Assembly: GCA_049320885.1 (NCBI GenBank)
Contig: JBMORA010000031.1
Coordinates: 32,001-96,000 of the forward strand
Length of the DNA stretch: 64,000 nt
Source: Thermodesulfobacteriota bacterium
GTDB taxonomy: Bacteria; Desulfobacterota; Desulfobacteria; Desulfobacterales; SURF-7
Direction of reading: 5' to 3'
Below the pieces are notes generated by a model. The model made no database searches. It worked only from the letters and a program-made list of their open reading frames with translations, and was not told where the DNA came from. The position numbers were made by a program, and so were the translations under genes. Positions 31,436 through 47,670 of this stretch are shown here, piece by piece. Numbering within the stretch: position 1 is the stretch's first letter; each line of letters opens with the position of its first letter.

Positions 31436-32089
31436 ATGCCAACAATTGTAATATATGGTGCCGGTGGATTCGCCAGAGAGGTCGCCTGGCTCATTCCCTC
31501 ATCCAATATGAAACAATATGAAATCGCATGTTTTATTTCCGATACCCCGGAAGAACAGGGTTTGGTGATCAACGGGATTGCCGTAATGAGCCTTGAAGAG
31601 ACCCGAAAAAGATATCCATCCGCATCAGCCATTGCCGCCATTGGGAATCCCGCTGGCCGGGAAATCATCAGCAACAGGGCAAAAGAAAACGGGTTCTGCT
31701 TCGCAACCATTATACACCAAGAAACCCTGAAGTCCGAATGGATTAAGATCGGCGAGGGAACTGTAATTTGCGCTGGGAATATTTTAACGACAAATATTGA
31801 AATCGGGCGGCACGCCCAGATCAATCTGGGGTGTACCATTGGTCATGATGTTATTATCGGTGATTATTCGACCCTCTCTCCAGGGGTGCATGTCTCCGGT
31901 AGAGTTCATATCGGAAACCGTGTGTATATCGGTACGGGTGCTGTCATTATCGCAGGGACCTCTGAACGTCCCATCGTGATTGAGGATGATGTCGTCATCG
32001 GCGCTGGTGCCTGCGTAACCAGATCACTTGCTGGCAAGCAAACCTATGTCGGTGTTCCGGCAAAATCCATCCGAACAGCGCACCTATAA
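31436..32089 (+). CDS. Sugar N/O-acetyltransferase, NeuD/PglD family
   Basis: IYGAGGFAREV, AIGNP..R, hexapeptide repeats, IGHD, YVGVPAK. Confidence 0.92.
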   Translation: MPTIVIYGAGGFAREVAWLIPSSNMKQYEIACFISDTPEEQGLVINGIAVMSLEETRKRYPSASAIAAIGNPAGREIISNRAKENGFCFATIIHQETLKSEWIKIGEGTVICAGNILTTNIEIGRHAQINLGCTIGHDVIIGDYSTLSPGVHVSGRVHIGNRVYIGTGAVIIAGTSERPIVIEDDVVIGAGACVTRSLAGKQTYVGVPAKSIRTAHL

Positions 32090-33325
32090 ATGACAACCAG
32101 AAACCGGCAAACTTCCGATCCTAATTATCCACCAAGCGATCTATCCTGGTTGGGCAGGTTGCGAGGGGCAGCCATCATCATGATAGTCGCCTGGCATGTG
32201 AATCAATTGCCCTTCAGCGGATTGTTTCTTCATAAATATACCAGATTTCTGCTGCCGTTTTTAGATCAGCCCGGATTTCAGGACCTGTTTACAACCACCT
32301 CCAGCGTGCAATTCTTTTTTCTGCCCATCGCCACATTTTGTAATCTCGGATACCAAGGCGTGCATCTTTTTTTCGTTTTAAGCGGATTCGGCTTGGTTTT
32401 GTCCTGGAACGCCTCCTTGAGGAAACAGAAAATCGACCGGTTTTTCCTGTTCTCATGGATGCGCAGACGATTTATGCGGATTTCTCTTCCGCTGTGGTTT
32501 TCCTTGGTCATCGTACTTGTTTTTTTACTACTTTTCGGCCCTAGAAAAATATATTATGTTACCAACCTTCCGGATAGTCCGGTTGTCTGGCTGAGGTTAT
32601 CCTTGCTCACGGCGTTGGGCCTAAATGGACTATTCCCAGGAACTATATATAGTATCAATCCTCCCCTCTGGTTTATTGCGCCGCTTTTCCAGTTTTATCT
32701 CATTTTCCCAATCCTGGTCGTTCTTTTAGATCGATACGGACCCGGAAAATTTATGATTTTTTCCATCATTATCACTATTGTATCTCGCTTTATTTTTATA
32801 TTTTATTTACAAAAATCCATCGGATGGCCTTTTGCTTTAGGCTCGTTCATCGGGTGCCGGCTGGCGGAGTTCGGTTTCGGCATGTCGATGGCGACATGGT
32901 ATCCAGAACAACATCGGAAATGGATACCTAACCTGAAAAATACTCTCCTTACCCTGTCAGGTTATGCAATGGGTCTGGTTCTGGCAACGACTCTCTGGGG
33001 AGCCTTGTTTTCCGAAATGTTCATCGGCGTGTTTCTGTTCGTACTCCTGTATTTTTTCTTTAATCGATTTAATTGGCTATCGATGGAACGGATCGGCAAA
33101 TATTCATTGGGTATTTTTCTAATTCATTATCCCTTGATGTATCCATTACAAAAATTATTTGGTTTGGTTTTACCGAATTATATCTTGTATGGTCAGCTGA
33201 TAAATTTTATTTTGGTTATGATAACATTGTTTTATTTCGGGATCGCTTTTGAATGGTCCTTATCCCGACTGATGCCGTTCCTGCAGCCCACAAAATGCAA
33301 CCATGGAGAAGGGAATGTATCTTGA
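32090..33325 (+). CDS. Membrane acyltransferase family 3 (OafA-like)
   Basis: LRGAAI...H, GVHLFFVLSGF, RRFMRI, WFI...FQFYLIFP, IGKYSLGIFLIH. Confidence 0.9.
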   Translation: MTTRNRQTSDPNYPPSDLSWLGRLRGAAIIMIVAWHVNQLPFSGLFLHKYTRFLLPFLDQPGFQDLFTTTSSVQFFFLPIATFCNLGYQGVHLFFVLSGFGLVLSWNASLRKQKIDRFFLFSWMRRRFMRISLPLWFSLVIVLVFLLLFGPRKIYYVTNLPDSPVVWLRLSLLTALGLNGLFPGTIYSINPPLWFIAPLFQFYLIFPILVVLLDRYGPGKFMIFSIIITIVSRFIFIFYLQKSIGWPFALGSFIGCRLAEFGFGMSMATWYPEQHRKWIPNLKNTLLTLSGYAMGLVLATTLWGALFSEMFIGVFLFVLLYFFFNRFNWLSMERIGKYSLGIFLIHYPLMYPLQKLFGLVLPNYILYGQLINFILVMITLFYFGIAFEWSLSRLMPFLQPTKCNHGEGNVS

Positions 33326-33427
33326 ATGAAATTCGACAATGATCTTTATTAAAATAAGATTTTTGTATATGCATCCATTGTGGATGCGGCTCCAGCCATC
33401 TGCATTTTTATAGCATAAGGATGAATC

Positions 33428-34642
33428 GTGATGATGGAAATCGATGTTTCTGTAAAATCTGCGCCGAATGATTTCGCCATCTTGGGCGGAACTCCCGTTT
33501 TTCCGGAAAAACTCCATGTGGGAAGACCGAACATTTTAAACAAAGCCGCCCTATTGACCCGTATCAACCAGATGTTGGAACGATGCTGGCTGACCAATAA
33601 CGGTCCCCTGGTTCAGGAGTTTGAACAAAAAATTACCGATATAACCGGTGTAAAGCACTGCATCGCCATGTGCAATGGAACCATCGCCCTGGAAATCGTC
33701 ATTCGCGCCCTCGGAATGACGGGCGAAGTCATCGTTCCCTCGGCAACGTTCATCGCTACGGCCCACTCCCTTCAATGGCAGGGTGTCACTCCGATATTCA
33801 GCGACATCGATATCCATACCCACAATCTGGACACCGCCAAAATTGAACGGATGATCACACCCCGGACAACGGGTATCATCGGTGTTCATCTATGGGGTCG
33901 GCCGTGCGATATCGAGGCCCTGACCGATGTGGCCAACCGACACGGGTTGAAACTGATCTTCGATGCGGCCCATGCCTTTGGATGCACATACAAAGGGAAA
34001 ATGATCGGAAATTTCGGTAATGCCGAAGTCTATAGCTTTCACGCCACCAAATTCATCAACACTTTTGAAGGCGGCGCCGTGGTAACCAACGACGACCATC
34101 TGGCTCAAAAAATCCGGTTGATGAAAAACTTCGGTTTCGCCGGTTACGACAACGTCATTTATATCGGCACCAACGGTAAAATGAGCGAGATATCGGCCGC
34201 CATGGGTCTGACATCCGTTGAGAGTATGGACGAAATCATCAGCGCCAACAGGACCAACTACCATCTGTATCAACACCTGCTGGAGGCGATTCCCGGAATT
34301 TCCCTGATCAGCTATAATAAAAAAGAACGGATGAATTATCAGTATATCATCATTGAAGTTGACGAGAAGGCCGCCGGCATAGCCCGTAACCGGATTGTGG
34401 AGATCCTCCACGCGGAAAACATTATCGCCAGGCGCTATTTTTTCCCCGGTTGCCATAAAATGGAACCGTATCGATCCTACTTTCCCCATGCCGGATTGTT
34501 GCTGCCGGAAACGGAGAAACTGCTGGATCGCGTCATCTCGCTACCCACCGGCACAGCCATCACGGAAGAACATATCCGGAAGATATGCGCCACCTTGAGC
34601 GCCATCATCCACCACAGTGGTTCCCTGCGGGAAAGGGCTTGA
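33428..34642 (+). CDS. DegT/DnrJ family NDP-sugar aminotransferase (VioA/DesI-like)
   Basis: LHVGRPN, WLTNNGP, DAAHAFG, SFHATK, GTNGKMSE, RRYF. Confidence 0.92.
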   Translation: MMMEIDVSVKSAPNDFAILGGTPVFPEKLHVGRPNILNKAALLTRINQMLERCWLTNNGPLVQEFEQKITDITGVKHCIAMCNGTIALEIVIRALGMTGEVIVPSATFIATAHSLQWQGVTPIFSDIDIHTHNLDTAKIERMITPRTTGIIGVHLWGRPCDIEALTDVANRHGLKLIFDAAHAFGCTYKGKMIGNFGNAEVYSFHATKFINTFEGGAVVTNDDHLAQKIRLMKNFGFAGYDNVIYIGTNGKMSEISAAMGLTSVESMDEIISANRTNYHLYQHLLEAIPGISLISYNKKERMNYQYIIIEVDEKAAGIARNRIVEILHAENIIARRYFFPGCHKMEPYRSYFPHAGLLLPETEKLLDRVISLPTGTAITEEHIRKICATLSAIIHHSGSLRERA

Positions 34643-34646
34643 TGTC

Positions 34647-35591
34647 ATGAGCGAATATACCGTTGACTACTCCATTATTATACCGGTTTACTATAACGAA
34701 GGCAGTCTTGCAAAAACATTTGATATACTGAAAAAGGAAGTTATTGGCAGGAATCCGGATTTAACGGCCGAGATCATTTTCATCGATGACGGCTCCGGAG
34801 ACAATTCCTTCCAGGAAATGACCGAATTGAAAAATGCCGCCCCACAACTGGTGAGGCTGATTAAATTTACCCGTAATTTTGGACAACTTCAGGCCATCAT
34901 GGCTGGATTCAAACTAGCCAGGGGAAAATGCGTGATCAACATATCGGCGGATCTTCAAGATCCTCCAGAACTGATCAATGAAATGATTTATTATCATTTC
35001 CAGGAACACCGCGAGATTGTCATCTGCACCCGTGAAGCACGGGATGAATCTTTTTTCCGGCGGGTGACGTCGCAGCTTTTCTATTCCATCATGAAACGCC
35101 TGAGCTTTCCGAACATGCCGCAAAAAGGCTTCGATTTCGTACTGCTCAGCGACAAGGTGAAGCAAGTCATCCTGAACAGCCGGGAATCCAACGCATTTTT
35201 TCAGGGACAGATCCTTTGGACCGGATATTCCATACACTTTATCCCCTATGTCAGAAGACGCAGGGAAATCGGTAAATCCCGTTGGACGTTCGGGAAAAAA
35301 ATCAAATACCTGATCGACGGGGTGATGAGTTATTCCTATTTTCCGATCCGGATGATGTCGGTCATCGGCGCCATCACGGCTTTGATCGGCTTCGGATATG
35401 CGTTTGTTATTTTCACGGCCTGGCTATTCGCCGGCGGGTCGGTGAAAGGCTGGGCTCCTCTGATGATCGCCATCCTCGTCCTGAGCGGCGTGCAAATGCT
35501 GATGATCGGTATTGTAGGGGAATACCTGTGGAGAACCCTGGACCAGGTGCGGGAGCGGCAACCGTACATCATTGACCGGATTATCGAATGA
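34647..35591 (+). CDS. GT2 polyprenol-phosphate glycosyltransferase (GtrB/ArnC-like)
   Basis: IDDGSGD, RNFG, ADLQDPPE, two C-terminal TMs, GIVGEYLWR. Confidence 0.92.
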   Translation: MSEYTVDYSIIIPVYYNEGSLAKTFDILKKEVIGRNPDLTAEIIFIDDGSGDNSFQEMTELKNAAPQLVRLIKFTRNFGQLQAIMAGFKLARGKCVINISADLQDPPELINEMIYYHFQEHREIVICTREARDESFFRRVTSQLFYSIMKRLSFPNMPQKGFDFVLLSDKVKQVILNSRESNAFFQGQILWTGYSIHFIPYVRRRREIGKSRWTFGKKIKYLIDGVMSYSYFPIRMMSVIGAITALIGFGYAFVIFTAWLFAGGSVKGWAPLMIAILVLSGVQMLMIGIVGEYLWRTLDQVRERQPYIIDRIIE

Positions 35592-36019
35592 GGATGGATT
35601 TGAATAAAAAATTGAAATTTCGCACCGGGGTGATCCAGTTTGAAAAATATGTGGCGGTGGGCATCCTGAACCTGTTTTTCACCCTGGCCGTCTATTTTGT
35701 TTTTCTCAAACTGCTCCACTCCCATTACCTGGTAGCCTATTCGGTATCATGGCTCGCCGGGGTTTTATTCACCTATGTCATCAATTTCGTCTGGGTGTTC
35801 AAACCGGAAAAGCAATTGGAATTCCGCTCCCGGTTGCCCAAATATTTCATCGTCTACATTTCTTCATTTCTGATCAATTTCTTTTCCCTGAAACTGTTGA
35901 CGGAATTCACAGGATGGGATCCGCTGATCGTTCAGATGTTTATCCTGCCCATTATCGTTTTTATCAACTTTTTTGGGATGAAATGGTGGTCGCTGAGACA
36001 TCGTGAGGTTCCGGATTAA
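35588..36019 (+). CDS. GtrA family flippase-like protein
   Basis: 143 aa, four TM helices, N..WVF motif, overlaps the GT2 stop. Confidence 0.88.
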   Translation: MRMDLNKKLKFRTGVIQFEKYVAVGILNLFFTLAVYFVFLKLLHSHYLVAYSVSWLAGVLFTYVINFVWVFKPEKQLEFRSRLPKYFIVYISSFLINFFSLKLLTEFTGWDPLIVQMFILPIIVFINFFGMKWWSLRHREVPD

Positions 36020-37865
36020 ACCAGGGATCGACATATCCAAAGAAACCCGGGAAAACGGCAGCAACTCCCTCTGGCAGGCCTTCGCCGCCACCGCCGTTTT
36101 GTTTCTGCTGATCTTGATTTTTTTTCCGGTTCGATATGAAACCAACGACGATTTCGCCCTGGTATATGAATTATCTGGGCCTTCCGCAACGCCGGTGAGT
36201 TTTGTTCTCAATCCGATCACCAGTCATTTTCTTTTTTACGCCTACCGGCTTTTCCCGGGAATCCCCTGGTACGGAACCTGGTTGTACGGTAGTATCTTTT
36301 TGGCAATATTTCTGATTATTTCAATTCTTATTCGGATCAGTCATCGTTTGGTGCTTCTTTGGATCGGGCCCTTTTTTCTGATTCTTTTGTTTCGGACCAT
36401 CGCCTTTCCCGGTATCACATCGGCAACCCTGCTGCTGTTGTTCGCCGTCTTTCTAAACATTCTGGATTGGGGCTTGACTGGGAGATGCCCATTTCCTCGA
36501 AAACGGATGCATCAGGCCCTCCTGATGATTGGATTATTCATGGGATTCCTGTTGCGGTGGGAATTGGCGACTTACGCTCTTGTATTCCTCGTCCCGGTGC
36601 TCATCTGCTGTAAGCCCTCGCGGCAACTCTATTGCCGTTCCGTTCTTTCCGGAGTCCTTCTCATTCTGTTGCTGTATCCGGTCTTTTTGACTTATCTGAA
36701 TTCCGGAAACAGACAGCCCTATAATGAATACAGTAAACTGAGGAAGATCTTTCACGATACGGAAAAAGGATATTACTACGAAGATATCACGCCGGCGGCC
36801 CTCGGTAAGGCAGGCTGGTCTTACAATGACTTCGTATTGTTCCGGAATTGGTGGTTCTTATATGACCACCTTCATTTCAATAAGGAAAAACTGACCGCGT
36901 TTTTACAGGAAAACACGCCTCTCCAGAAGAAACCGTTCCTCCGGCACGCTATAGAAAGGGTAACGGAAGCCTTTGGAAACAGCAAACAGCCAACCATTTT
37001 GTTCCTGTTGTCGGCAATGCTGCTTTTTCTATTTCGGATATTGTATCCGCCGGGTGCAATGAAACAGGACTTTCTGAAACGGTCAATATCGATTTCCATG
37101 ACGACGGCCGGTGTTTTATTTTTTGCGTATTACCGCTTTGAACCCCGCATTTATTTCCCCCTGTATGCCTATTTGCTCGGCATGATGGCGATCCTGCTGT
37201 ATCATGACTGCCCCGGGATGCCAGCGCGTATATCGGTCTTTCACAAAATGATATGGTGCGCCGTCATACCGTTTTCCATTGGAACTATTGGCTTGGTCTA
37301 CATCATCGGCGACATCCAGTTGCAGGATCTATCCGCGTCTTACAGGAACAAACAATTTATCCGCCATCAGTTCGAAAAAGTTGATCCAAACCTGATCAAC
37401 AAGGATAGTGCTCTCTTAATCGTATTGAACCCCCTGGATAATATAATGATTGAGACCATCCACCCCCTTAAGGAAAAAAAGGATTATCCCGATTTTACAA
37501 TATTGCCCTTCGGCTGGCAGATTAACTCACCTCAATATGTCCGTCTGCTGGAGGAGTTCGGCGTTTTCGACAAGGATTCCTTTTTACGCTGGACCTTGGA
37601 CAACCGGAATGTTTTCTGGTTTCAGCTTTTCCGGGATTCGATAGACGACCATCGGATCAGCCTGATAGAGAAGTATATCGGACGGTATGCCGCTAATGGG
37701 AAACCATGTGTTTTCCAGCCTGTTGTTGATTGCAGAAACCAGGATGGAATCGGTTTTGTTTTTTTTAACCTGGTGTGCAACAATATAAAGCAAAGTCTTT
37801 TAAATTACATGGACACCGGGATAGAAGCGGTGCTTCCATGTGAGGACAACAGGTATGATCGCTGA
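36003..37865 (+). CDS. Polytopic membrane protein, probable GT-C glycosyltransferase (GtrC position)
   Basis: YETNDD acidic motif after first TM, many TM segments, follows GtrB/GtrA-like genes. Confidence 0.6.
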   Translation: MRFRIKPGIDISKETRENGSNSLWQAFAATAVLFLLILIFFPVRYETNDDFALVYELSGPSATPVSFVLNPITSHFLFYAYRLFPGIPWYGTWLYGSIFLAIFLIISILIRISHRLVLLWIGPFFLILLFRTIAFPGITSATLLLLFAVFLNILDWGLTGRCPFPRKRMHQALLMIGLFMGFLLRWELATYALVFLVPVLICCKPSRQLYCRSVLSGVLLILLLYPVFLTYLNSGNRQPYNEYSKLRKIFHDTEKGYYYEDITPAALGKAGWSYNDFVLFRNWWFLYDHLHFNKEKLTAFLQENTPLQKKPFLRHAIERVTEAFGNSKQPTILFLLSAMLLFLFRILYPPGAMKQDFLKRSISISMTTAGVLFFAYYRFEPRIYFPLYAYLLGMMAILLYHDCPGMPARISVFHKMIWCAVIPFSIGTIGLVYIIGDIQLQDLSASYRNKQFIRHQFEKVDPNLINKDSALLIVLNPLDNIMIETIHPLKEKKDYPDFTILPFGWQINSPQYVRLLEEFGVFDKDSFLRWTLDNRNVFWFQLFRDSIDDHRISLIEKYIGRYAANGKPCVFQPVVDCRNQDGIGFVFFNLVCNNIKQSLLNYMDTGIEAVLPCEDNRYDR

Positions 37866-39513
37866 TAATCTCTCTTCAACTAGCGGGCGGGCCAGAAAAA
37901 GCCGAATTTTGCTGCCATCGGTTCTTTTGGTTTTTTTGACCCTGATGGTTTACTGGCAAGTGAAGGATTTCGAATTTATCAATTATGATGATCCCACCTT
38001 CACGACTCAAAATTACCTTGTACAAAAGGGATTCACCGTAAAAGGCATCCGGGAGATCTTCTCCAACCCCGATTATTTTTGCATGCAGCTGAGTTTTTTG
38101 TCCCATATGCTGGATTGCCAGCTGTTCGGCCTGCAAGCCGGTTACCATCACCTTACCAACCTTTTCTGGCATATCGCGAGCGCCGTTCTGTTGTTTTTAT
38201 TCCTCCGCCACATGACGGGTGCCATGTGGAAAAGCCTTGCCGTGGCCATGCTGTTCGCCATCCACCCGGTCCATGTTGAATCCGTGGCCTGGATTGCTGA
38301 ACGGCGGAATGTCCTGAGTACTTTTTTTTGGTTCGCGGCTCTGCTGGCCTACTGGCGTTACGCCCGTCAACCCGGGTTTCTTTCCTATCTGGCAGTGACG
38401 GTTCTGTTTACTTTGGGTTTGACTGCCAAGTCGATGCTGGTGACACTTCCTTTTCAACTTCTCTTGCTGGACTTCTGGCCCCTGGAAAGAATACATTTCA
38501 AATCGCAAAATTCAAATGTTAAATCTTTCCTCTCATGGGTTATGATAGAGAAAATCCCCCTGTTCGCCATCTCGGCTCTCGCATGTTACCTTACCCTAAT
38601 TTCCGCACGAAATCAGGGAGGGGTTAAAGGAATCGGCGGGCTGGTATCCTTTGAAGCCATTCCACTTTTTTCGCGCATGGCAAACGCTGCCATTGCCTAT
38701 ATCAACTACATGATTCATTTGGTTTTTCCTTTTGATCTGTCGGTTTATTATCCTTACCCGAATTCAATCCCTCTTTGGCAGGTTACCGGCGCATCTCTGC
38801 TGCTGATTTCCATGCTGATCGTTATCTTACGGTATGCTGTTCGTCTGCCCTGGTTGGTGACTGGCTGGTTCTGGTTCATGGGGACTCTGGTGCCTGTAAT
38901 CGGTCTGGTTCAGCTCGGAGGCCAGGCCATGGCCGACAGATATATTTACGTACCGAGTATAGGAATTTTTATCATCCTGGTCTGGGGAACAGCGACGATT
39001 TTCACGAAAACCGGTATCCGGCGGAAAACCACCGCATTATTGGCGGTCTTTTTTTTCACTATCTTGGCATCCAATACCTGGATGCAGCTGCAATATTGGA
39101 AAAACAGTCTGACACTATTCGAACGCACGGTGCGCATAACGCCGGACTACCCCGTGGCATACAACAACCTCGGAATGGCCCTGGCCAACGCCGGCCGACT
39201 GGAAGAGGCAAGCGACAATATCCAAAAAGCCATACAACTGATGCCGGTATTTGCGGAAGCATACAACAATTTAGGCAACATTCTCAGCACCCAAGGGAAT
39301 ATCGATGAGGCTGTCGAGAATTATCGCAAAGCCCTGGCGCTGAACCCGGACTACTCCGAAGCGCATAATAACTTGGGAATCGCCTACTATACGAAACAGT
39401 TGACGGAAGAAGCCATATTCCATTTTCAACAGGCATTGCGTCTGTCGCCGGATTATCCGGATGCGCGCCACAATTTGGAAATCGTACTTAAAAAACGCTT
39501 AACCGGGAAATAA
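37840..39513 (+). CDS. TMTC-like GT-C glycosyltransferase with C-terminal TPRs (copy 1)
   Basis: FINYDD, LFAIHPVHVESVAWIAERR, MADRYIY, about 4 TPRs. Confidence 0.88.
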   Translation: MRTTGMIADNLSSTSGRARKSRILLPSVLLVFLTLMVYWQVKDFEFINYDDPTFTTQNYLVQKGFTVKGIREIFSNPDYFCMQLSFLSHMLDCQLFGLQAGYHHLTNLFWHIASAVLLFLFLRHMTGAMWKSLAVAMLFAIHPVHVESVAWIAERRNVLSTFFWFAALLAYWRYARQPGFLSYLAVTVLFTLGLTAKSMLVTLPFQLLLLDFWPLERIHFKSQNSNVKSFLSWVMIEKIPLFAISALACYLTLISARNQGGVKGIGGLVSFEAIPLFSRMANAAIAYINYMIHLVFPFDLSVYYPYPNSIPLWQVTGASLLLISMLIVILRYAVRLPWLVTGWFWFMGTLVPVIGLVQLGGQAMADRYIYVPSIGIFIILVWGTATIFTKTGIRRKTTALLAVFFFTILASNTWMQLQYWKNSLTLFERTVRITPDYPVAYNNLGMALANAGRLEEASDNIQKAIQLMPVFAEAYNNLGNILSTQGNIDEAVENYRKALALNPDYSEAHNNLGIAYYTKQLTEEAIFHFQQALRLSPDYPDARHNLEIVLKKRLTGK

Positions 39514-39526
39514 CCGTCTATACTCC

Positions 39527-41299
39527 ATGAATCAAATCTTTCGCGATTCCAATTCCCTCATTCGAAGACCCGGAACCTGGATATATGCCCTGCTGGTTTT
39601 ACTTACCCTGATGCCCTACTGGCCGGTGACCGATAATCAATTTATCAATTTCGATGACAATCAGTATGTTTATGAGAATGATCAGGTTATCAACGGCCTG
39701 AGCTTTCAGAACGTGATCTGGGCCTTTTCATCCACGGTGGCGGCAAACTGGCATCCGATGACTATGCTTTCCCACATGCTGGATGTTCATCTGTATGGAC
39801 TAAATCCCGGCGGGCATCATTTCACCAGCTTGTTGCTTCATATTCTGAATACGCTACTCCTGTATCTTCTGTTGAATCGGCTCTCCAGCGAGCCATGGCC
39901 ATCCCTGTTTGTCGCCATTCTTTTCGCCGTTCATCCTCTCCATGTGGAGTCCGTTGCCTGGGTCGCCGAACGTAAAGACGTCCTAAGCACTTTTTTCTGG
40001 TTTCTGACTGTCCTGAGTTATCTCCGCTTTTTGGAACATAAGACCTTCATAAACTATCTGATGGCTCTAACCTTTTTCTCCCTGGGCCTGATGGCCAAAC
40101 CCATGTTGGTCACCCTACCTTTTTCATTGCTGCTGATGGATTTTTGGCCGCTGGGGAGAATCGGACGTAAAACGAAAAGCGTCGCCCTCCAGGCAGACAC
40201 AAAGACAGCAACGGAAAAAAACTGGAATTCGGGATTTCCCGTTTATATCATATTGGAAAAAATACCATTTTTGATCATTGTGGCGGTTTTCTGCGTCATC
40301 GTTTTCAAAGTCCAGCAGATCGAAGGCGCGGTCGCTCCGCGGGATATCATCCCGCTAGAATCCAGGCTGCTGAACGCGCTGATATCCTATTGCCGCTATC
40401 TGGTCAAAACGGCCTGGCCGTTTCAACTTTCCGTTTTTTATCCATTTCCCCAGGTCATTTCCTTATGGCTACCGGTGTCTGCGGGGTTCGCATTGTTTTG
40501 TTTCTCTCTCTTTGCGCTGTTTCAATCCAGCAAAAGGCCTTGGTTGTTTTTCGGCTGGTTCTGGTACGTTGGAACACTGGTGCCGGTTATCGGCATCATC
40601 CAGGTCGGGGCTCAGTCCATGGCGGATCGGTACACGTACATTCCCTTGATTGGAATTTTTATCGCCATGGCATGGGAAATAGCTGAATGGGTGAAAAAAC
40701 ATCAGTTCCGAAAGAAGTTCTTGTTACCGACCGGCTCGATTCTGGTCGCCGCATTTTCCATCCTCACCTGGGTTCAGGTCCATCACTGGCGTGACAGCAT
40801 CACGCTGTATGAACATGTTCTGAGAATCAACGATGACAATAGTGTGATCCAAAACACCATGGGGCTGGCCAAACTGGATCGCAACCGAGTCCAGGAGGCC
40901 ATTCAGCATTTTTCGAAAGCCATCTGGTTGAAACCGGACAATGGAAAGCCGTATAACAATCTCGGCATCGCCCTTGTCCAGAACAATCAGCTTGCTCTGG
41001 CCGAGCAGGCCTTCCGGAATGCAATCGAATTAATGCCCGGCTTTGCCGATGCCCATGTCAATATGGGGATTGTAAAATTGCGACAAGGGGATACTCGTAA
41101 CGCCATAGCTCATTTTTCCCAGGCGCTTGCACTGAACCCTATCCATGCAAAAGCACATTTCAGCATGGCGCTGGCCTATGAAAAAGAAAATCGTGTTGAC
41201 AGGGCGATCTCCCACTATGAGACCGCCATAAAGACGGAACCGAAACTTGCCGCAATGGCATTGAATCGAATCCGTCAGTTGCGTAAATTCGGTGAATAA
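39527..41299 (+). CDS. TMTC-like GT-C glycosyltransferase with C-terminal TPRs (copy 2)
   Basis: FINFDD, NWHPMT, LFAVHPLHVESVAWVAERKD, MADRYTY, TPRs. Confidence 0.88.
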   Translation: MNQIFRDSNSLIRRPGTWIYALLVLLTLMPYWPVTDNQFINFDDNQYVYENDQVINGLSFQNVIWAFSSTVAANWHPMTMLSHMLDVHLYGLNPGGHHFTSLLLHILNTLLLYLLLNRLSSEPWPSLFVAILFAVHPLHVESVAWVAERKDVLSTFFWFLTVLSYLRFLEHKTFINYLMALTFFSLGLMAKPMLVTLPFSLLLMDFWPLGRIGRKTKSVALQADTKTATEKNWNSGFPVYIILEKIPFLIIVAVFCVIVFKVQQIEGAVAPRDIIPLESRLLNALISYCRYLVKTAWPFQLSVFYPFPQVISLWLPVSAGFALFCFSLFALFQSSKRPWLFFGWFWYVGTLVPVIGIIQVGAQSMADRYTYIPLIGIFIAMAWEIAEWVKKHQFRKKFLLPTGSILVAAFSILTWVQVHHWRDSITLYEHVLRINDDNSVIQNTMGLAKLDRNRVQEAIQHFSKAIWLKPDNGKPYNNLGIALVQNNQLALAEQAFRNAIELMPGFADAHVNMGIVKLRQGDTRNAIAHFSQALALNPIHAKAHFSMALAYEKENRVDRAISHYETAIKTEPKLAAMALNRIRQLRKFGE

Positions 41300-41505
41300 G
41301 CATCGGAAGAAAAACGGTTGAATAATTAGTCGGTTATTATTATAATCAACAGGTTTGTTTTCGGCACAAGACAAATAGCGCCACTGATGGCATAATTTCC
41401 TTTCTGTTTATGATTTAGGACATTGGGATATAAGTGGATGGACAAGACAGAAAAAACAGTACCGCTTGGTGGAAATCTTAAAAGACACGACTAAAGGAGG
41501 AAAGA

Positions 41506-42570
41506 ATGAAAAAGTCTTACGCCGGTCTGCTTGTCATGATAGTTCTTCCCCTGATGATGAGCTGCGCAAAAGATCCGAAAATTGAATGGAACGAACTGAA
41601 CAATCAGGTGGCAAGTCTTTATCAGGCCGGCAAATACGATGAGGCCATCCAGATCGGGAAAAAAGCCATCGAAGTTGCGGAGAAAGCATTTGATCCCGCG
41701 CATCCCAATGTGGCCAAAACCCTGTACAATGTTGCCGGATGCTATTACATTCAAAACAAATTGGACGAAGCGGAACCGCTTTTTGCAAGGGCTCTGAGAA
41801 TAAAAATCAAAGCCTTCGGCCCCATGCATCCGGAAGTAGCCGACCTGCTCAATCTCCTGGGGAACATCTATTCCCTGCAGGATAAAAACCATCAGGCGGA
41901 AGCCGTTTACCGGGATGCTTTATCCATCAGCCTCCAGGTATACGGTAACAAAGACCCCAAGGTAGCCACCATATTCAGCAACCTGGCGGCTGTTTATTTT
42001 TCCCAGGGCAAATTTGCAAAAGCGGACAAATATTACAATACCGCGCTTCAAATCACGCCCGGAGAACAAAATCTGTTGAAAAACAAAGCCGAGCTGGACA
42101 AAACCAGACCCCAGATCGACACCATTCTTCAGCAGCAAATTGAAAAAGTTCAACAAAAACCTGACGATCCTTACCTGCAGTGGAAATTGGGCAACCTGCA
42201 CTCGGAAAAAAATGACTTGGACAAGGCCATCGAGCACTATAAAAAAGCAGTTTCCATAAAACAGGATTATGTGGAAGCGATGCTGGATCTGGCTGACATT
42301 TACGAATATCAGAAAAATTTTGAACCGGCGCTTGAAATGGTGCAGAACGCCTTGAAGCTGCAACCGGAGAGAAATGACCTTATGTATCAGTGCGCCGCAT
42401 TGTTTGCCCAGAAAGCGGATACCAAATCAGCTGTTGAATGGCTGGGGAAAGCAGTTCAAAAAGGCTATCGGAATCTATCACGGATAAAAACCGACAATCG
42501 ACTGGCGAGCATCCGGGAGACCGAAGAATACAAAAAAATTATCACCCCTCCGGCAGCTAAGCAGGAATGA
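41506..42570 (+). CDS. TPR-repeat lipoprotein
   Basis: Lipobox-like MMSC; kinesin-light-chain-like TPRs (HPNVAKTLYNVA; HPEVADLLNLLG); C-terminal AVEWLGKAVQKGY. Confidence 0.85.
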   Translation: MKKSYAGLLVMIVLPLMMSCAKDPKIEWNELNNQVASLYQAGKYDEAIQIGKKAIEVAEKAFDPAHPNVAKTLYNVAGCYYIQNKLDEAEPLFARALRIKIKAFGPMHPEVADLLNLLGNIYSLQDKNHQAEAVYRDALSISLQVYGNKDPKVATIFSNLAAVYFSQGKFAKADKYYNTALQITPGEQNLLKNKAELDKTRPQIDTILQQQIEKVQQKPDDPYLQWKLGNLHSEKNDLDKAIEHYKKAVSIKQDYVEAMLDLADIYEYQKNFEPALEMVQNALKLQPERNDLMYQCAALFAQKADTKSAVEWLGKAVQKGYRNLSRIKTDNRLASIRETEEYKKIITPPAAKQE

Positions 42571-42774
42571 GAATGGGAATTCCAGGGATGGTTTTCGGCA
42601 GTCAAAGCGCTGCAATCGAACCGTGATATGCATTCGGCTGGAAACCATCCCGGCTTTCGAGTATGAGAATATCGGACCCGGATTTTACTTTTTTATCCCG
42701 GGACGAATGAAACATATCAACCGAAGCAAAACGCTTTCCGATTCAACCAGACAAGGACAATCATTCGAAGAACA

Positions 42775-44832
42775 GTGAATATCGTCAAACACCAAACGAC
42801 AGGATTGATCTGTGTCGCCCTTTTGATAGTTACCATTGCTGCATATGCCCAAGTGATGGGATTCGATTTCGTCGGTTTTGACGATCCGGCCTTCACCACC
42901 GAAAATCCCCTCATTCAAAAAGGCATAAGCCGGGAAGGGATCAGAGAGGTTTTCCGCAATCCGGACTACTTCTGCATGCAGTTGTCGGTATTATCCCATA
43001 TGCTGGACTGCGAGCTGTTCGGGCTCGATCCCGGCAGGCACCATTTTGTCAACCTGATTTTTCATCTTCTCAATGTGTTGCTGTTGTTTATTTTAATGAA
43101 ACGCCTTGGCGGAGATATTCTGCCAAGCGCTGCTGTTGCGGCCCTGTTTGCCGTCCACCCGCTGAATGTGGAATCCGTGGCATGGATCGCCGAACGACGG
43201 AATGTGCTCAGCACTTTTTTCTGGTTCGCCGCCACACTTGCCTATATCCGTTATACCGAACGACGCAGCCTGACATCCTATATCCTCATGACCGTTTTTT
43301 TTGTTTTCGGTCTCATGTCCAAAGCCATGCTGGTGACCCTGCCCTTTACATTATTGCTGCTGGATTTCTGGCCGTTAGAAAGGATCCAGCTAAACGGGGC
43401 GAGCTCAAAGCCGGAAGCAAAAATCTCAAATCTCAAATCTCAAATCTCAAATTCCTATGGAATCGCCGTTTTAGAAAAGCTTCCGCTGATGATTATCTCG
43501 GTTGCGGCCAGTTACCTGACGTTGATCGCCGCACAAAACACCGGCGGCGCACCCGGGATTGGAGGTCTCATGTCGGCGGAGGAACTGCCCATCGGTTTCC
43601 GATTCGCCAATGCGATGGTTTCCTATTCAGCCTATCTCGTCAAAACCGTCTGGCCCTTCGATTTGTCCTTGAACTATCCCCTGAATAAAAACCTGTCGTT
43701 ATGGCAGATTCTGCCGGCCGCGGCTTTTCTGGTAGCGGTCACCGGGATCTCCTTTTGGACCATTCGCACCAGACCATGGCTTGCGGTGGGCTGGCTCTGG
43801 TATCTCGGCACCCTCACCCCGGTGATTGGCATTATTCAGCTTGGCCATCAGGCCATGGCGGATCGGTATGTTTATGTGCCGCTCATCGGAATTTTCATAA
43901 TGGTCTCATGGACGGTCGCCGACTGGAATCGAATGCGTCCATTCCGGGGGAAAACCGTAATGGTTTGGGCCATGCTGCTGATCGCTCTCATGACGGTCAA
44001 CACCATCCTCCAAAACCGATATTGGCGGAATACGGTGACCTTGTTCGAACATGTCATCCATATTTCCCCAACGTATACACTGGCCTATTATAATCTCGGG
44101 GTTGCCCTTCGGAAAATGGGGCGATCGGCGGAGGCCTTTCATTATTTTTCAAAAGCAACCGCCATGGCGCCCGATTTTGCAGAAGCCAATTTTTTCATGG
44201 CCCTCTTTTTCACTGAATCGAATCAGCCCGACAAAGCCATCGCTTATTATCATAAAGCGCTTTCCCGAAAACCGGAACTTACCGAAGCCCGGTTCAATCT
44301 GGCTCGTCTTTTTACAAAACTCAGCCAATGGGAAGAAGCGGAGAATCAGTACCGGAAAATTCTGACGACCAAACCCAACGACCCGGATACCCTGCATGCC
44401 CTGGGCAATCTGTTCGAGCGGCAAAATCAACCAGAAATAGCCGCACAATATTACCGGAAAGCCATTCAAGGAAAGCCCGATTCCGCCATGTTCCATCAAA
44501 GTCTGGGCGCGTCCTTTGAAAAAATGGGAAATTTCGCGGAAGCTTCCCGGCAATACACCGAGGCCATCCGGATCGATCCGGGCAATACCAATTTATATAA
44601 CCAGATGGCCATTCTGATGTTCAAACAAGGCAAGATGGAGGAGGCGTTCCGTTATTTTCACCGTGCCCTCACCATCAACCCGAAGGATGCGAACACTTAT
44701 TATAACATGGCGGTTTCTTATTCCAAACTCAACCGTATTGAAGAGGCGATCCAACATTATACCAAAGTGATCGAAATCGACGAATCGTTTGCCGACGCCA
44801 GGAAAAAACGGGATATGCTGTTGAACAATTAA
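42775..44832 (+). CDS. TMTC-like GT-C glycosyltransferase with C-terminal TPRs (copy 3)
   Basis: FVGFDD, LFAVHPLNVESVAWIAERR, MADRYVY, about 7-8 TPRs. Confidence 0.88.
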   Translation: MNIVKHQTTGLICVALLIVTIAAYAQVMGFDFVGFDDPAFTTENPLIQKGISREGIREVFRNPDYFCMQLSVLSHMLDCELFGLDPGRHHFVNLIFHLLNVLLLFILMKRLGGDILPSAAVAALFAVHPLNVESVAWIAERRNVLSTFFWFAATLAYIRYTERRSLTSYILMTVFFVFGLMSKAMLVTLPFTLLLLDFWPLERIQLNGASSKPEAKISNLKSQISNSYGIAVLEKLPLMIISVAASYLTLIAAQNTGGAPGIGGLMSAEELPIGFRFANAMVSYSAYLVKTVWPFDLSLNYPLNKNLSLWQILPAAAFLVAVTGISFWTIRTRPWLAVGWLWYLGTLTPVIGIIQLGHQAMADRYVYVPLIGIFIMVSWTVADWNRMRPFRGKTVMVWAMLLIALMTVNTILQNRYWRNTVTLFEHVIHISPTYTLAYYNLGVALRKMGRSAEAFHYFSKATAMAPDFAEANFFMALFFTESNQPDKAIAYYHKALSRKPELTEARFNLARLFTKLSQWEEAENQYRKILTTKPNDPDTLHALGNLFERQNQPEIAAQYYRKAIQGKPDSAMFHQSLGASFEKMGNFAEASRQYTEAIRIDPGNTNLYNQMAILMFKQGKMEEAFRYFHRALTINPKDANTYYNMAVSYSKLNRIEEAIQHYTKVIEIDESFADARKKRDMLLNN
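43421..43448 (+). repeat. Intragenic heptamer tandem repeat (AAATCTC)x4
   Basis: Four perfect copies followed by degenerate AAATTCC; encodes KISNLKSQISN. Confidence 0.9.
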
Positions 44833-44920
44833 AATCAGTTTGCAAATTTGGGATGGAAACAGTGTATACAGGCGGCAGATGGTTTACGGCTCCGCCACCC
44901 TCTGAAAGGACTGATCGCGA

Positions 44921-45706
44921 ATGTATAAAAACCAGAAAGTAGTCGTCGTCATGCCGGCATATAACGCTGAATTGACCCTGGGTCGAACATATGATGAGGT
45001 AATGGCCCAGGAGATTGTCGACCTGGTGATTATCGTTGATGACAACAGCCGGGACAGAACAGTGGAAATCGCCCGGCAACTCCCCAACGCCATCGTTCAT
45101 CAACATCCGGTAAACACGGGATACGGCGGAAATCAAAAAACCTGTTATCGATTAGCTCTGGAACAAAGCGGCGACATCATCATCATGGTTCACCCCGATT
45201 ATCAATATACACCCAAATTGATTCCCGCCATGGCGTCCATGATAGGCAACGGTCTGTATCACTGTGTTCTCGGTTCCAGAATTTTAGGCGGCTATGCCCT
45301 TAAAGGCGGGATGCCTATATGGAAATACGTTTCCAACCGTTTCCTGACACTTGTCGGAAATCTGCTGCTGGGCGCCAAGCTTTCGGAATACCACACCGGG
45401 TATCGGGCTTTTTCCCGAAGCCTTCTCGAGAATCTGCCATTGGAGAAAAATTCGGACGATTTTGTTTTCGACAACCAGATGTTGGCGCAAATCGTCTGGC
45501 AGGGATACATGATCGCAGAAATCAGTTGTCCAACGAAATATTTCCCGGAAGCCTCTTCCATCAATCTGATCAGAAGCATTCAATACGGTTTCGGTTGTCT
45601 CAGCACAGCCATCTCATTCCGTCTCGCCAAATCGAGCCTTGCCCATTCGGGACTGTTCCCGCAAGCACTTTCTGGCCGCTATCCGACCATGGACAAAACG
45701 ATGTGA
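44921..45706 (+). CDS. GT2, dolichol/polyprenol-phosphate mannose synthase-like
   Basis: VVMPAYN, VDDNS, GYGGNQK, HPDYQY, GSR, EYHTGYRAF. Confidence 0.9.
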   Translation: MYKNQKVVVVMPAYNAELTLGRTYDEVMAQEIVDLVIIVDDNSRDRTVEIARQLPNAIVHQHPVNTGYGGNQKTCYRLALEQSGDIIIMVHPDYQYTPKLIPAMASMIGNGLYHCVLGSRILGGYALKGGMPIWKYVSNRFLTLVGNLLLGAKLSEYHTGYRAFSRSLLENLPLEKNSDDFVFDNQMLAQIVWQGYMIAEISCPTKYFPEASSINLIRSIQYGFGCLSTAISFRLAKSSLAHSGLFPQALSGRYPTMDKTM

Positions 45707-45732
45707 CCTGTTATGCAAAACAGCTGCTTCTG

Positions 45733-47670
45733 ATGAAATCCCAGCCGCATCGCTCCCTATTCATTATAATGTGTCTCATGGCTGCCGCTTTTGCGGTGTA
45801 CCAGCCGGTCCGCAACCATCCCTTTATCGAACTGGACGACAATATCTATGTCACCGCGAATTACCATGTCCGATCCGGCATCACCTGGGAAGGCATCAAA
45901 GAGGCTTTCCGTTTTACCGGAACCGGGGAACAGGTGTATTATCATCCCTTAACCATGCTGTCCCACATGCTGGATGTCGAATTGTTCGGTTTGAACCCCT
46001 CCTCCCATCATCTGGTAAATGTAGCCTTCCATGCACTCAATGCGATACTGCTTTTCTTGTTCCTGCATTTTTCCACCGGATCGACATATCGAAGCGGTAT
46101 GGCGGCGATGTTGTTCACCCTGCATCCGATGAATGTTGAGTCCGTCGCCTGGATAGCGGAACGGAAAAACCTGCTTAGTTCCATGTTCTGGTTGCTTGCC
46201 TGCCTTGCCTACGCCCGGTATTCCCGCAAACGGGACGTGTTTTCCTATGCCGCCACGCTGGTGACAATGTTTCTTGGCCTACTATCCAAGCCCATGCTGG
46301 TGACCCTGCCGTTCGTCTTTCTGCTTCTGGATTTCTGGCCGCTTGGAAGGATCAGGTTGAAAAATGGCAGCCCGCAGGCACCGGTCTTTGTTCTATTGCT
46401 GGTTGAAAAAATCCCATTTTTCTCTTTGTCGGCCGTATGGGTGTGGATTGCCTCTCTTTCCGCCAAGCAGGCGGGGTTATTGATTTCAACCCATGCGGCG
46501 CCCATGCCTGTGCGCCTGCAGAACGCCATTCACTCCTATTGGAGTTATCTAAGCAAACTCATCTTCCCGCAGGATATGGCTGTTTTTTATCCATTCCCAG
46601 CTGAAACCGGACCGCTGGGGCAAACAGCCGTTTTCGTATTTTTCCTGCTGATCGTTACTTTCCTTGCAATTCGGTTGCGTTTATCCTCCCCCTATTTTTT
46701 TTCAGGATGGAGCTGGTTCTGCGGAACCCTGGTGCCGGTATTGGGCCTCAAGCAGCAGGGACTGTGGCCTGCCATGGCGGACCGCTGGACATATATTCCT
46801 GGTATCGGCATTTTCATCGTCCTGGTGTGGGGAGGGCACCAATTGGCCTATAGCAACATTCTGAGGCGATATCTGCTGGTCTTTTCTTCGGTCATAATCG
46901 TTCTGCTGGCAATTCTAACCCGGATGCAGCTGGGATATTGGCAAAACGATATCCGCCTTGCGGAGCATTGCCTTGCAGCAACGGAACGAAACCATGTCGC
47001 CCATCACCTCCTTGGCCTGGCATTGATAAAAAACGGACAAAAAGAGGAAGGAATCCGGCATGTCCATGAATCCGTTCGGCTGGGACCCGGTTACAATACC
47101 CCGCATATAACCCTGGGAGGTATTCTGGCGGAAACCGGATACTTGAAAAGCGCCATGGAACAGCTTTCCATTGCCCTGACCATCAACCCCAACGTCGCCA
47201 TTGCCTGGAACAATCTCGGAATTGTTTATAAAAAAATGGGCGAGTTGGAGAAAGCGCTGGCGGCTTTTTCCAAGGCACTGCAATTGGATCCGTATTCCAC
47301 TGATGTCTGCAACAATCTGGCGAATACATTGAAATTGAAAAACCGCTTCAGCGAAGCGGTCCAGTATTATCAAAAAGCGCTTCAGATCAACAACAACATA
47401 CCAGAAATCCACAACAATATCGCCAATACCTACCTGGCGATGGAACAGCCGGAAAAAGCCATTCAACATTACAAGAAAGCGATTCAACTTTCCCCTCGTC
47501 AACCGATCTTTTATCTCAACCTTGGCGAAATCTTGCGGAGTAACGGAAAAAAGGAGGAGGCGATCGCCAATTACAACCAAGCCCTGCGGCTCATTCCTGA
47601 CGACCCTGAGATCATCGGCCGTCTGAAGGAATTGCATGTTTCTGAGATTCCATCGAACCCGGAAAATTGA
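45733..47670 (+). CDS. TMTC-like GT-C glycosyltransferase with C-terminal TPRs (copy 4)
   Basis: FIELDD, YYHPLT, LFTLHPMNVESVAWIAERKN, MADRWTY, TPRs; start moved from 45319 to ATG 45733 to avoid overlap. Confidence 0.88.
   Translation: MKSQPHRSLFIIMCLMAAAFAVYQPVRNHPFIELDDNIYVTANYHVRSGITWEGIKEAFRFTGTGEQVYYHPLTMLSHMLDVELFGLNPSSHHLVNVAFHALNAILLFLFLHFSTGSTYRSGMAAMLFTLHPMNVESVAWIAERKNLLSSMFWLLACLAYARYSRKRDVFSYAATLVTMFLGLLSKPMLVTLPFVFLLLDFWPLGRIRLKNGSPQAPVFVLLLVEKIPFFSLSAVWVWIASLSAKQAGLLISTHAAPMPVRLQNAIHSYWSYLSKLIFPQDMAVFYPFPAETGPLGQTAVFVFFLLIVTFLAIRLRLSSPYFFSGWSWFCGTLVPVLGLKQQGLWPAMADRWTYIPGIGIFIVLVWGGHQLAYSNILRRYLLVFSSVIIVLLAILTRMQLGYWQNDIRLAEHCLAATERNHVAHHLLGLALIKNGQKEEGIRHVHESVRLGPGYNTPHITLGGILAETGYLKSAMEQLSIALTINPNVAIAWNNLGIVYKKMGELEKALAAFSKALQLDPYSTDVCNNLANTLKLKNRFSEAVQYYQKALQINNNIPEIHNNIANTYLAMEQPEKAIQHYKKAIQLSPRQPIFYLNLGEILRSNGKKEEAIANYNQALRLIPDDPEIIGRLKELHVSEIPSNPEN

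Follow-up and report, generated by a model that had tools for sequence, protein, structure and literature searches.

What would a bacterium do with four related membrane proteins, each carrying a candidate glycosyltransferase domain followed by TPRs, encoded within a single run of genes? We examined this question in a 64,000-nucleotide stretch of a Thermodesulfobacteriota genome (GCA_049320885.1, contig JBMORA010000031.1, positions 32,001 to 96,000; GTDB order Desulfobacterales, SURF-7), hereafter the window. Named protein matches (Desulfonema magnum, Desulfobacteraceae) suggest Desulfobacterales, and the assembly yielded no 16S gene. Twelve plus-strand open reading frames (ORFs) at window positions 31436–47670 form the cluster, confirming the twelve co-oriented genes of the original prediction, which had proposed a near self-contained, TMTC-type protein glycosylation system, and Pfam and NCBIfam scans bear out its family assignments (acetyltransferase, AT3, DegT, GT2s, GtrA, TPR). 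The best reading, which we hold with moderate confidence and by association only, is protein glycosylation in two modules, most plausibly of type IV pilin. The locus contributes a family of GT-C enzymes that is probably new, the pairing of the TPR proteins with a particular soluble GT2 enzyme (GT2b), and a loss of proposed metal ligands that extends across the clade.

The four paralogues, A (37840..39513, with a possible start at 37855), B (39527..41299), C (42775..44832) and D (45703..47670), have membrane domains that are 39–51% identical, C being closest to A (51%). All four carry the predicted DD loop, HPxxVESVAWxxER and ADRxxYxP motifs. An AlphaFold model of B (pLDDT 84) contains 11 candidate membrane helices, compared with 6–8 from crude hydropathy, and its membrane domain aligns with yeast Pmt2 over 342 residues (Z score 18.5, root-mean-square deviation 4.9), with AglB (Z 17.8), Pmt4 (17.7), ALG12 (17.5) and ArnT (16.9) next. 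This structure comparison, one of the checks suggested with the prediction, supports a predicted GT-C membrane fold for B and, through homology to B, for A, C and D; PMT_2 scores above cut-off in B (39.3 bits) and C (32.8 bits). The TPR domain would be periplasmic and the N-terminus inside, as in TMTC and TfpW. PDB sequence searches with the B membrane domain and profiles A2 and A3 gave nothing meaningful, a full-length profile search and Foldseek with B gave TPR proteins only, and the 50 VIA rows listed for B included no TMTC or TfpW structure, which excludes nothing. Within the clade of close relatives that share the VESVAW motif, represented by 268 proteins that are all top matches and hence a biased set, DD is kept in 257. 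The positions DD, ER, K, R280 and DR show little or no variation.

Proteins of this kind are abundant. At E ≤ 1e-3, a membrane-domain profile matched 117,255 clusters, and at the stricter E ≤ 1e-30 still 35,787; within the order it matched 32 of 41 genomes, with up to 13 matches per genome and the close clade present in 29; the genome studied here has 8 close and 5 distant copies. Nearly adjacent copies are usual, with 49 of 94 close-clade matches lying within 6 kb of another. Across phyla, more than one copy occurs in 28 of 77 loci from Verrucomicrobiota, Planctomycetota, Acidobacteriota, Desulfobacterota, Nitrospirota and others, these loci having been kept from the best 80 of 656 confirmed GTDB matches and many being cut by contig ends. 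A Ca. Magnetocorallium genome (L064, G042) alone has 32 profile matches. We therefore rejected the idea that four paralogues in a row are distinctive, since tandem arrays are ordinary both in the order and across phyla. Plasmid searches with B and with a pilA-adjacent homologue found no match, and a search with a third homologue found one partial haloarchaeal match.

The TMTC-type assignment stood in part. Animal TMTC1–4, for which we take GT105 to be the CAZy label, are protein O-mannosyltransferases using dolichyl-phosphate mannose, and they share with the paralogues a GT-C domain followed by TPRs and the motif order DD, N, HPxxxExV..RxD/N, K..T, R, P..L and [E/D]RxxYxP. In the Atlas, a Chordata DUF1736 cluster stands at 0.92, with 191 of 256 features. 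The motifs were compared by eye with the published alignment in PMC7801869 and its supplement, a paper that already notes full-length prokaryotic TMTC homologues. The motif order and the Atlas lead thus favour the assignment; against it stand both proposed metal ligands, treated below, and PF08409 (TMTC_DUF1736), which matched none of 29 clade members at E ≤ 1 and nothing over cut-off in the genome. The TMTC M2 motif SHKSYRP is absent, with HP in B and D and CMQL in A and C; the RxD of M3 occurs in B only, the other three having RxN; and the ERxxY of M7 is replaced by DRxxY in all four. The paralogues are relatives of TMTC rather than members.

The statement that bacterial TMTC-like proteins lack defined substrates is contradicted by TfpW, a pilin-glycosylating enzyme built to the same architecture. 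As described in bioRxiv 10.1101/2020.04.19.049825, TfpW of Pseudomonas aeruginosa group IV strains (Pa5196, PA7) adds D-arabinofuranose to Ser/Thr of pilin; it has 646 residues, 11 predicted transmembrane segments, DDX in the first periplasmic loop and a C-terminal periplasmic TPR domain, with an ArnT-like model, a GtrA-like helper and a polyprenyl-phosphate monosaccharide donor. Compared by architecture and motif, the paralogues resemble it in length (about 650 residues), 11 transmembrane segments (B model), DD, C-terminal TPRs and ArnT-like fold, as well as in the GtrA-family gene present in the cluster and the pilA linkage of the clade in relatives. TfpW is single whereas the cluster has four paralogues; TfpW lies directly downstream of pilA, whereas no pilA stands beside the cluster, although clade members in relatives are so placed; and the TfpW donor comes by a DprE1/E2 route, in contrast to donors from GT2 synthases here. 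By analogy, the cluster appears to be an enlarged version of a design already known from TfpW and TMTC. For the VESVAW clade itself, the literature searched, with subscription journals mostly outside its coverage, gave no substrate. Elsewhere in this genome, C38:84071-89962 (L119) holds PMT_2 GT-C genes together with DprE1/DprE2-like genes and a DPPR-synthase-like gene that scores 199 bits against a cut-off of 207, a set that precedes lptF/G-like genes and is likely a lipid-linked arabinose route.

The neighbourhood survey connected the clade to a sugar-donor synthase and to pilin within the order. GT2b (44921..45706) is a soluble GT2 resembling dolichyl-phosphate-mannose synthase (5mlz, E 4.1e-11); together with GT2a, described below, it supports the predicted polyprenyl-phosphate-sugar synthases. 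It is a single-copy gene (68–83% identity) in 25 of the 41 genomes of the order, and among the 19 genomes holding both, 11 (7 families; 0.09 expected) have it no more than 2 kb from a clade gene, so placed that GT2b and the TMTC-like genes form a conserved core. Across phyla, 6 of 77 loci contain a GT2b-like gene (at least 50% identity). Major pilA lies within 6 kb of a close-clade gene in 12 of 24 genomes from 6 families (0.3 expected), and of any homologue in 17 of 27, as counted from the best 45 of 110 pilin rows and, once the second halves of two split genes had been removed, 126 of 128 transferase rows; kinship makes these genomes non-independent, so that such expected values overstate the contrast. 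In four genomes from four families (L111–L114), a single run of genes combines pilA with GT2b and a clade gene. A quick version of the clade tree, with SH-aLRT supports, places B in a 23-row group (SH-aLRT 95) with 8 of 11 added pilA- or GT2b-adjacent rows. In the genome studied here, one distant homologue follows pilA by 186 bp on contig C64 and another is convergent on a pilin-like gene on C12, both being related to the window clade (hhalign 100%, E 8e-50). The association with pilA that relatives show thereby supports the predicted protein acceptor. A second and weaker candidate, no more than a lead, is offered by DUF6160 fibre-like proteins, whose genes have a clade member within 6 kb in 4 of 12 genomes (0.55 expected) and, by a crude pattern, occur in none of the 77 cross-phylum loci.

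The upstream genes read as a separate module with its own transferase. The aminotransferase (33428..34642), a DegT-family pyridoxal-phosphate enzyme of DesI/VioA type, matches DesI (PDB 2po3) at E 4.5e-127, the next match being 1.6e-61, and TIGR04427 at 529 bits, below its cut-off of 650; because DesI is its closest match, its product is likely dTDP-4-amino-4,6-dideoxyglucose. GT2a (34647..35591), a GtrB/ArnC-type polyprenyl-phosphate glycosyltransferase with two hydrophobic helices at its C-terminus, matches the GtrB-like 5ekp at E 7.1e-58 and ArnC at E 1.5e-36, and is followed by a GtrA-family protein, a proposed flippase or hub (35588..36019; PF04138, E 3.9e-22). Next comes a 620-residue membrane protein (36003..37865) that matches no Pfam or NCBIfam family, has no TPR and has 8 matches including itself; in 10 of 10 aligned sequences of its family, the NDD of a YExNDD loop is invariant. 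In its model (pLDDT 78), the top 8 VIA rows are all GT-C enzymes with Z 8.6–11.7, under the 13 advised for helical proteins, the match to DPY19 covering 445 aligned residues (Z 11.7, root-mean-square deviation 5.9), and Foldseek also places DPY19 on top (E 7e-4, TM 0.38). The protein described in the prediction by its GtrC position does occupy that position, and is itself likely a fifth GT-C, from an unnamed, rare and probably new family.

Since GT2a is GtrB-like and the 620-residue protein matches GT-C enzymes, the tandem genes at 34647–37865 may be read as a three-component Gtr-type system, the pattern described in PMC11127046 as the classical O-antigen modification triad. They differ from such systems in a donor that is likely an acylated aminodideoxyhexose, in a GT-C part from an unnamed rare family and in being joined to the TPR GT-C array. 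The prediction sent the amino sugar through the TMTC-like enzymes; it need not take that path and probably goes through the 620-residue protein, which is likely the module's own GT-C: the aminotransferase orthologue and the 620-residue family occur in the same 3 of 41 genomes, those of the genus. Nor is the route near self-contained, because the precursor genes, rmlBACD-like and found by motif, sit on another contig (C30); no acceptor gene lies nearby.

We propose that GT2b would charge undecaprenyl phosphate with a sugar, that the lipid-linked sugar would be flipped, perhaps helped by GtrA, and that the four GT-C/TPR enzymes would attach it to exported surface proteins, pilin first, presumably through Ser/Thr. 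The upstream genes would supply acylated 4-amino-4,6-dideoxyglucose, which the 620-residue GT-C would add to a glycan, possibly a protein-linked one; these upstream genes (module 1) would then cap or branch a glycan begun by GT2b and the TPR enzymes (module 2), and not LPS (lipopolysaccharide). We infer every chemical step of this scheme, including the donor chemistry (DesI/VioA and GtrB similarity) and the acceptor.

Several findings weigh against pilin glycosylation in two modules, the relatedness of the genomes counted above and the sub-threshold Z scores of the 620-residue protein among them. Neither a pilin nor a DUF6160 gene lies in or beside the cluster. Of the 94 clade matches in the order, just 13 have pilA within 6 kb, and across phyla a pilin motif was found in 3 of 77 loci, any GT2 in 9, and GtrA or DegT in none. 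In these fragmented assemblies, GT2b also went unmatched in 10 of 29 clade-bearing genomes, and the clade in 6 of the 25 genomes with GT2b. At the level of motifs, the TfpW signature YX6PFX7P is exact in none of the four paralogues, A, B and C having YX6PFX6P, one residue short. The TMTC KE(T/Q)xxT motif keeps its Lys and Thr and loses its Glu in all four (KP/KS/KA), as does DW its Asp. Both proposed TMTC metal ligands are in fact missing throughout the clade: the residue after the M4 Lys is Pro in 251 of 268 proteins and Glu in none (6 rows unparsed), and DW occurs in none (8 rows unparsed). GT9 heptosyltransferase-like genes adjoin clade members in two loci (L015, L116).

That last observation suits an account in which all five GT-Cs, working in parallel as Gtr/ArnT-type systems, modify glycans of the envelope that are not on protein (O-antigen, LPS core, lipid A or exopolysaccharide) and the TPRs only scaffold, as would the GtrB–GtrA–GT-C triad, the presence of ArnT among the fold matches, the four Wzy_C matches in the genome and the location of most clade genes away from pilA. 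We consider it rather unlikely, given that no LPS gene family recurs among the neighbours of the 77 loci (whose clusters were inspected by sequence and not all annotated), that the characterised enzymes combining 11 transmembrane segments, DD and TPRs (TMTC, TfpW) act on proteins, and that half of the 24 genomes link clade and pilA. Within the twelve genes, Pfam and NCBIfam scans found no wzx, wzy, waaL, pglB or pilO family, in line with the prediction, and STT3 had no match genome-wide.

Two further accounts keep protein as the acceptor and divide the labour differently. The four TPR enzymes, each with different substrates, might move both lipid-linked sugars, the amino-deoxysugar among them, straight onto proteins. 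The gene order of both modules, kept in all three genomes of the genus, and the separate maintenance of the paralogues, each with its own congener orthologues, fit such a single route, which we nonetheless regard as improbable: a likely GT-C belonging to module 1 fills the GtrC position, the module's aminotransferase and 620-residue families reach 3 of 41 genomes against 29 for the clade, and GtrA and DegT are missing from the cross-phylum loci. Slightly more improbable is that some or all paralogues extend the glycan, flip lipid sugars or scaffold, leaving attachment to a homologue of KE/EHR type behind pilA. In its favour, neither proposed metal ligand survives in the clade, while KE is mostly retained in the pilA-adjacent clade; a KE-type gene stands first after pilA in several loci; the M2 proline motif is missing from A and C as well; and TfpW itself was proposed to polymerise (bioRxiv 10.1101/2020.04.19.049825). 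Against this, the near-invariance of DD, ER, K, R280 and DR is retained, and in L114, L115 and L116 a clade gene directly follows pilA with no KE-type gene found in the locus.

Pilin glycosylation in two modules can be extended, speculatively and with little confidence, to a general system: the VESVAW clade would be a metal-independent TMTC/TfpW branch that, with GT2b, serves Desulfobacterota fibre subunits (pilins, DUF6160), each TPR domain picking a different protein, and in this genus the new GT-C family would cap the sugar on the protein with an acylated viosamine-type residue, giving a stepwise periplasmic glycan. If true, pilA, GT2b and one transferase would make a minimal unit for one of the largest uncharacterised clades of enzymes from environmental bacteria, and a bacterial model would be at hand both for protein choice by TPR-bearing GT-C enzymes and for catalysis where the proposed TMTC metal ligands are missing. 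It would also bear on Desulfobacterota pili, including the pilA clusters of cable bacteria, which contain TPR and sugar-modifying genes for which the consulted part of PMC10580974 settles no role.

The remaining cluster genes fill out this picture. The first two encode a NeuD/PglB/VioB-family sugar N-acetyltransferase (31436..32089; TIGR03570, 193.5 bits against an NCBIfam cut-off of 160.8) and an AT3 membrane O-acyltransferase (32090..33325; PF01757 (Acyl_transf_3), E 2.8e-33). The other ten keep the order DegT–GT2a–GtrA–620-residue protein–A–B–TPR–C–GT2b–D in both congeners, in other surroundings and without the first two genes; the NeuD-type acetyltransferase has no congener match at E ≤ 1e-10, the AT3 gene was found in none of five relatives in a search without a positive control, and in the congeners a different hexapeptide-repeat acyltransferase adjoins the block. 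Because their GC content at third codon positions is lower (0.49, against 0.54–0.63) and they were not found in congeners, the two genes are likely a later addition. A TPR protein with a lipoprotein-type signal (41506..42570; LMMSC, with a lipobox-like Cys) has orthologues 62–72% identical in both congeners, with the Cys kept. In the quick tree, each paralogue groups with its own congener orthologues. Paralogue D probably starts at 45703, in a GTGA overlap, or at 45733, rather than at 45319: the latter start, of a 783-residue ORF, falls inside GT2b, and the congener orthologues (55–58% identity) have 658 and 672 residues. Intergenic gaps range from −26 to +206 bp, GC content is 45–51% compared with 55.8% for the genome, and a promoter scan stayed at chance level (26 versus 24.3).

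Two other window genes were noted. A PilB/GspE-type ATPase with N-terminal GAF and MshEN domains, below the PilB cut-off, is encoded at 51823–54129 on the opposite, minus strand, 4 kb downstream of the cluster. A 934-residue ORF at 12114–14918 (plus strand), in a low-GC stretch, has a weak fn3 match alone.

For want of an acceptor gene, the cluster is a poorer test case than the pilA-adjacent loci, and C64:161993-171990 (L020) in the same genome is the better TfpW-like test locus, with a pilR-like regulator, pilA, a TMTC-like gene of KE/EHR type, a VKOR-DsbA-like fusion, more membrane proteins and then a Wzx-like gene. A second, near-identical pilA (88%) lies at C47:30960-31427 amid unrelated genes, and no transferase turned up in its vicinity. 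On a Saccharibacteria-binned contig (L085), a clade gene overlaps a GT2b orthologue (77%) among other GT-C-like genes; we rejected this locus as proof of an LPS-free host, as the contig looks foreign to such a genome and is probably misbinned. At C57:15468-44667 (L021–L023), three close and one distant TMTC-like gene and a spermidine-synthase/TPR membrane fusion are followed by four DUF6160 genes, a 2192-residue protein ending in GGGCFISS, and genes orthologous to those for a C39 peptidase, a FadL-like barrel and a SPOR protein; Pfam assigned these families to the copies in G002, where the locus is syntenic (L005, L006). The gene set resembles one for Fap/Fil-type fibre export. Finally, C12:97624-126796 (L024, L025) carries one close-clade gene and a paralogue of the 620-residue protein (36%), along with GT2s, a methyltransferase–GT2 fusion, MBOAT pairs and further unnamed membrane proteins. 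This set abuts the cluster's block in both congeners, so the two were probably once joined.

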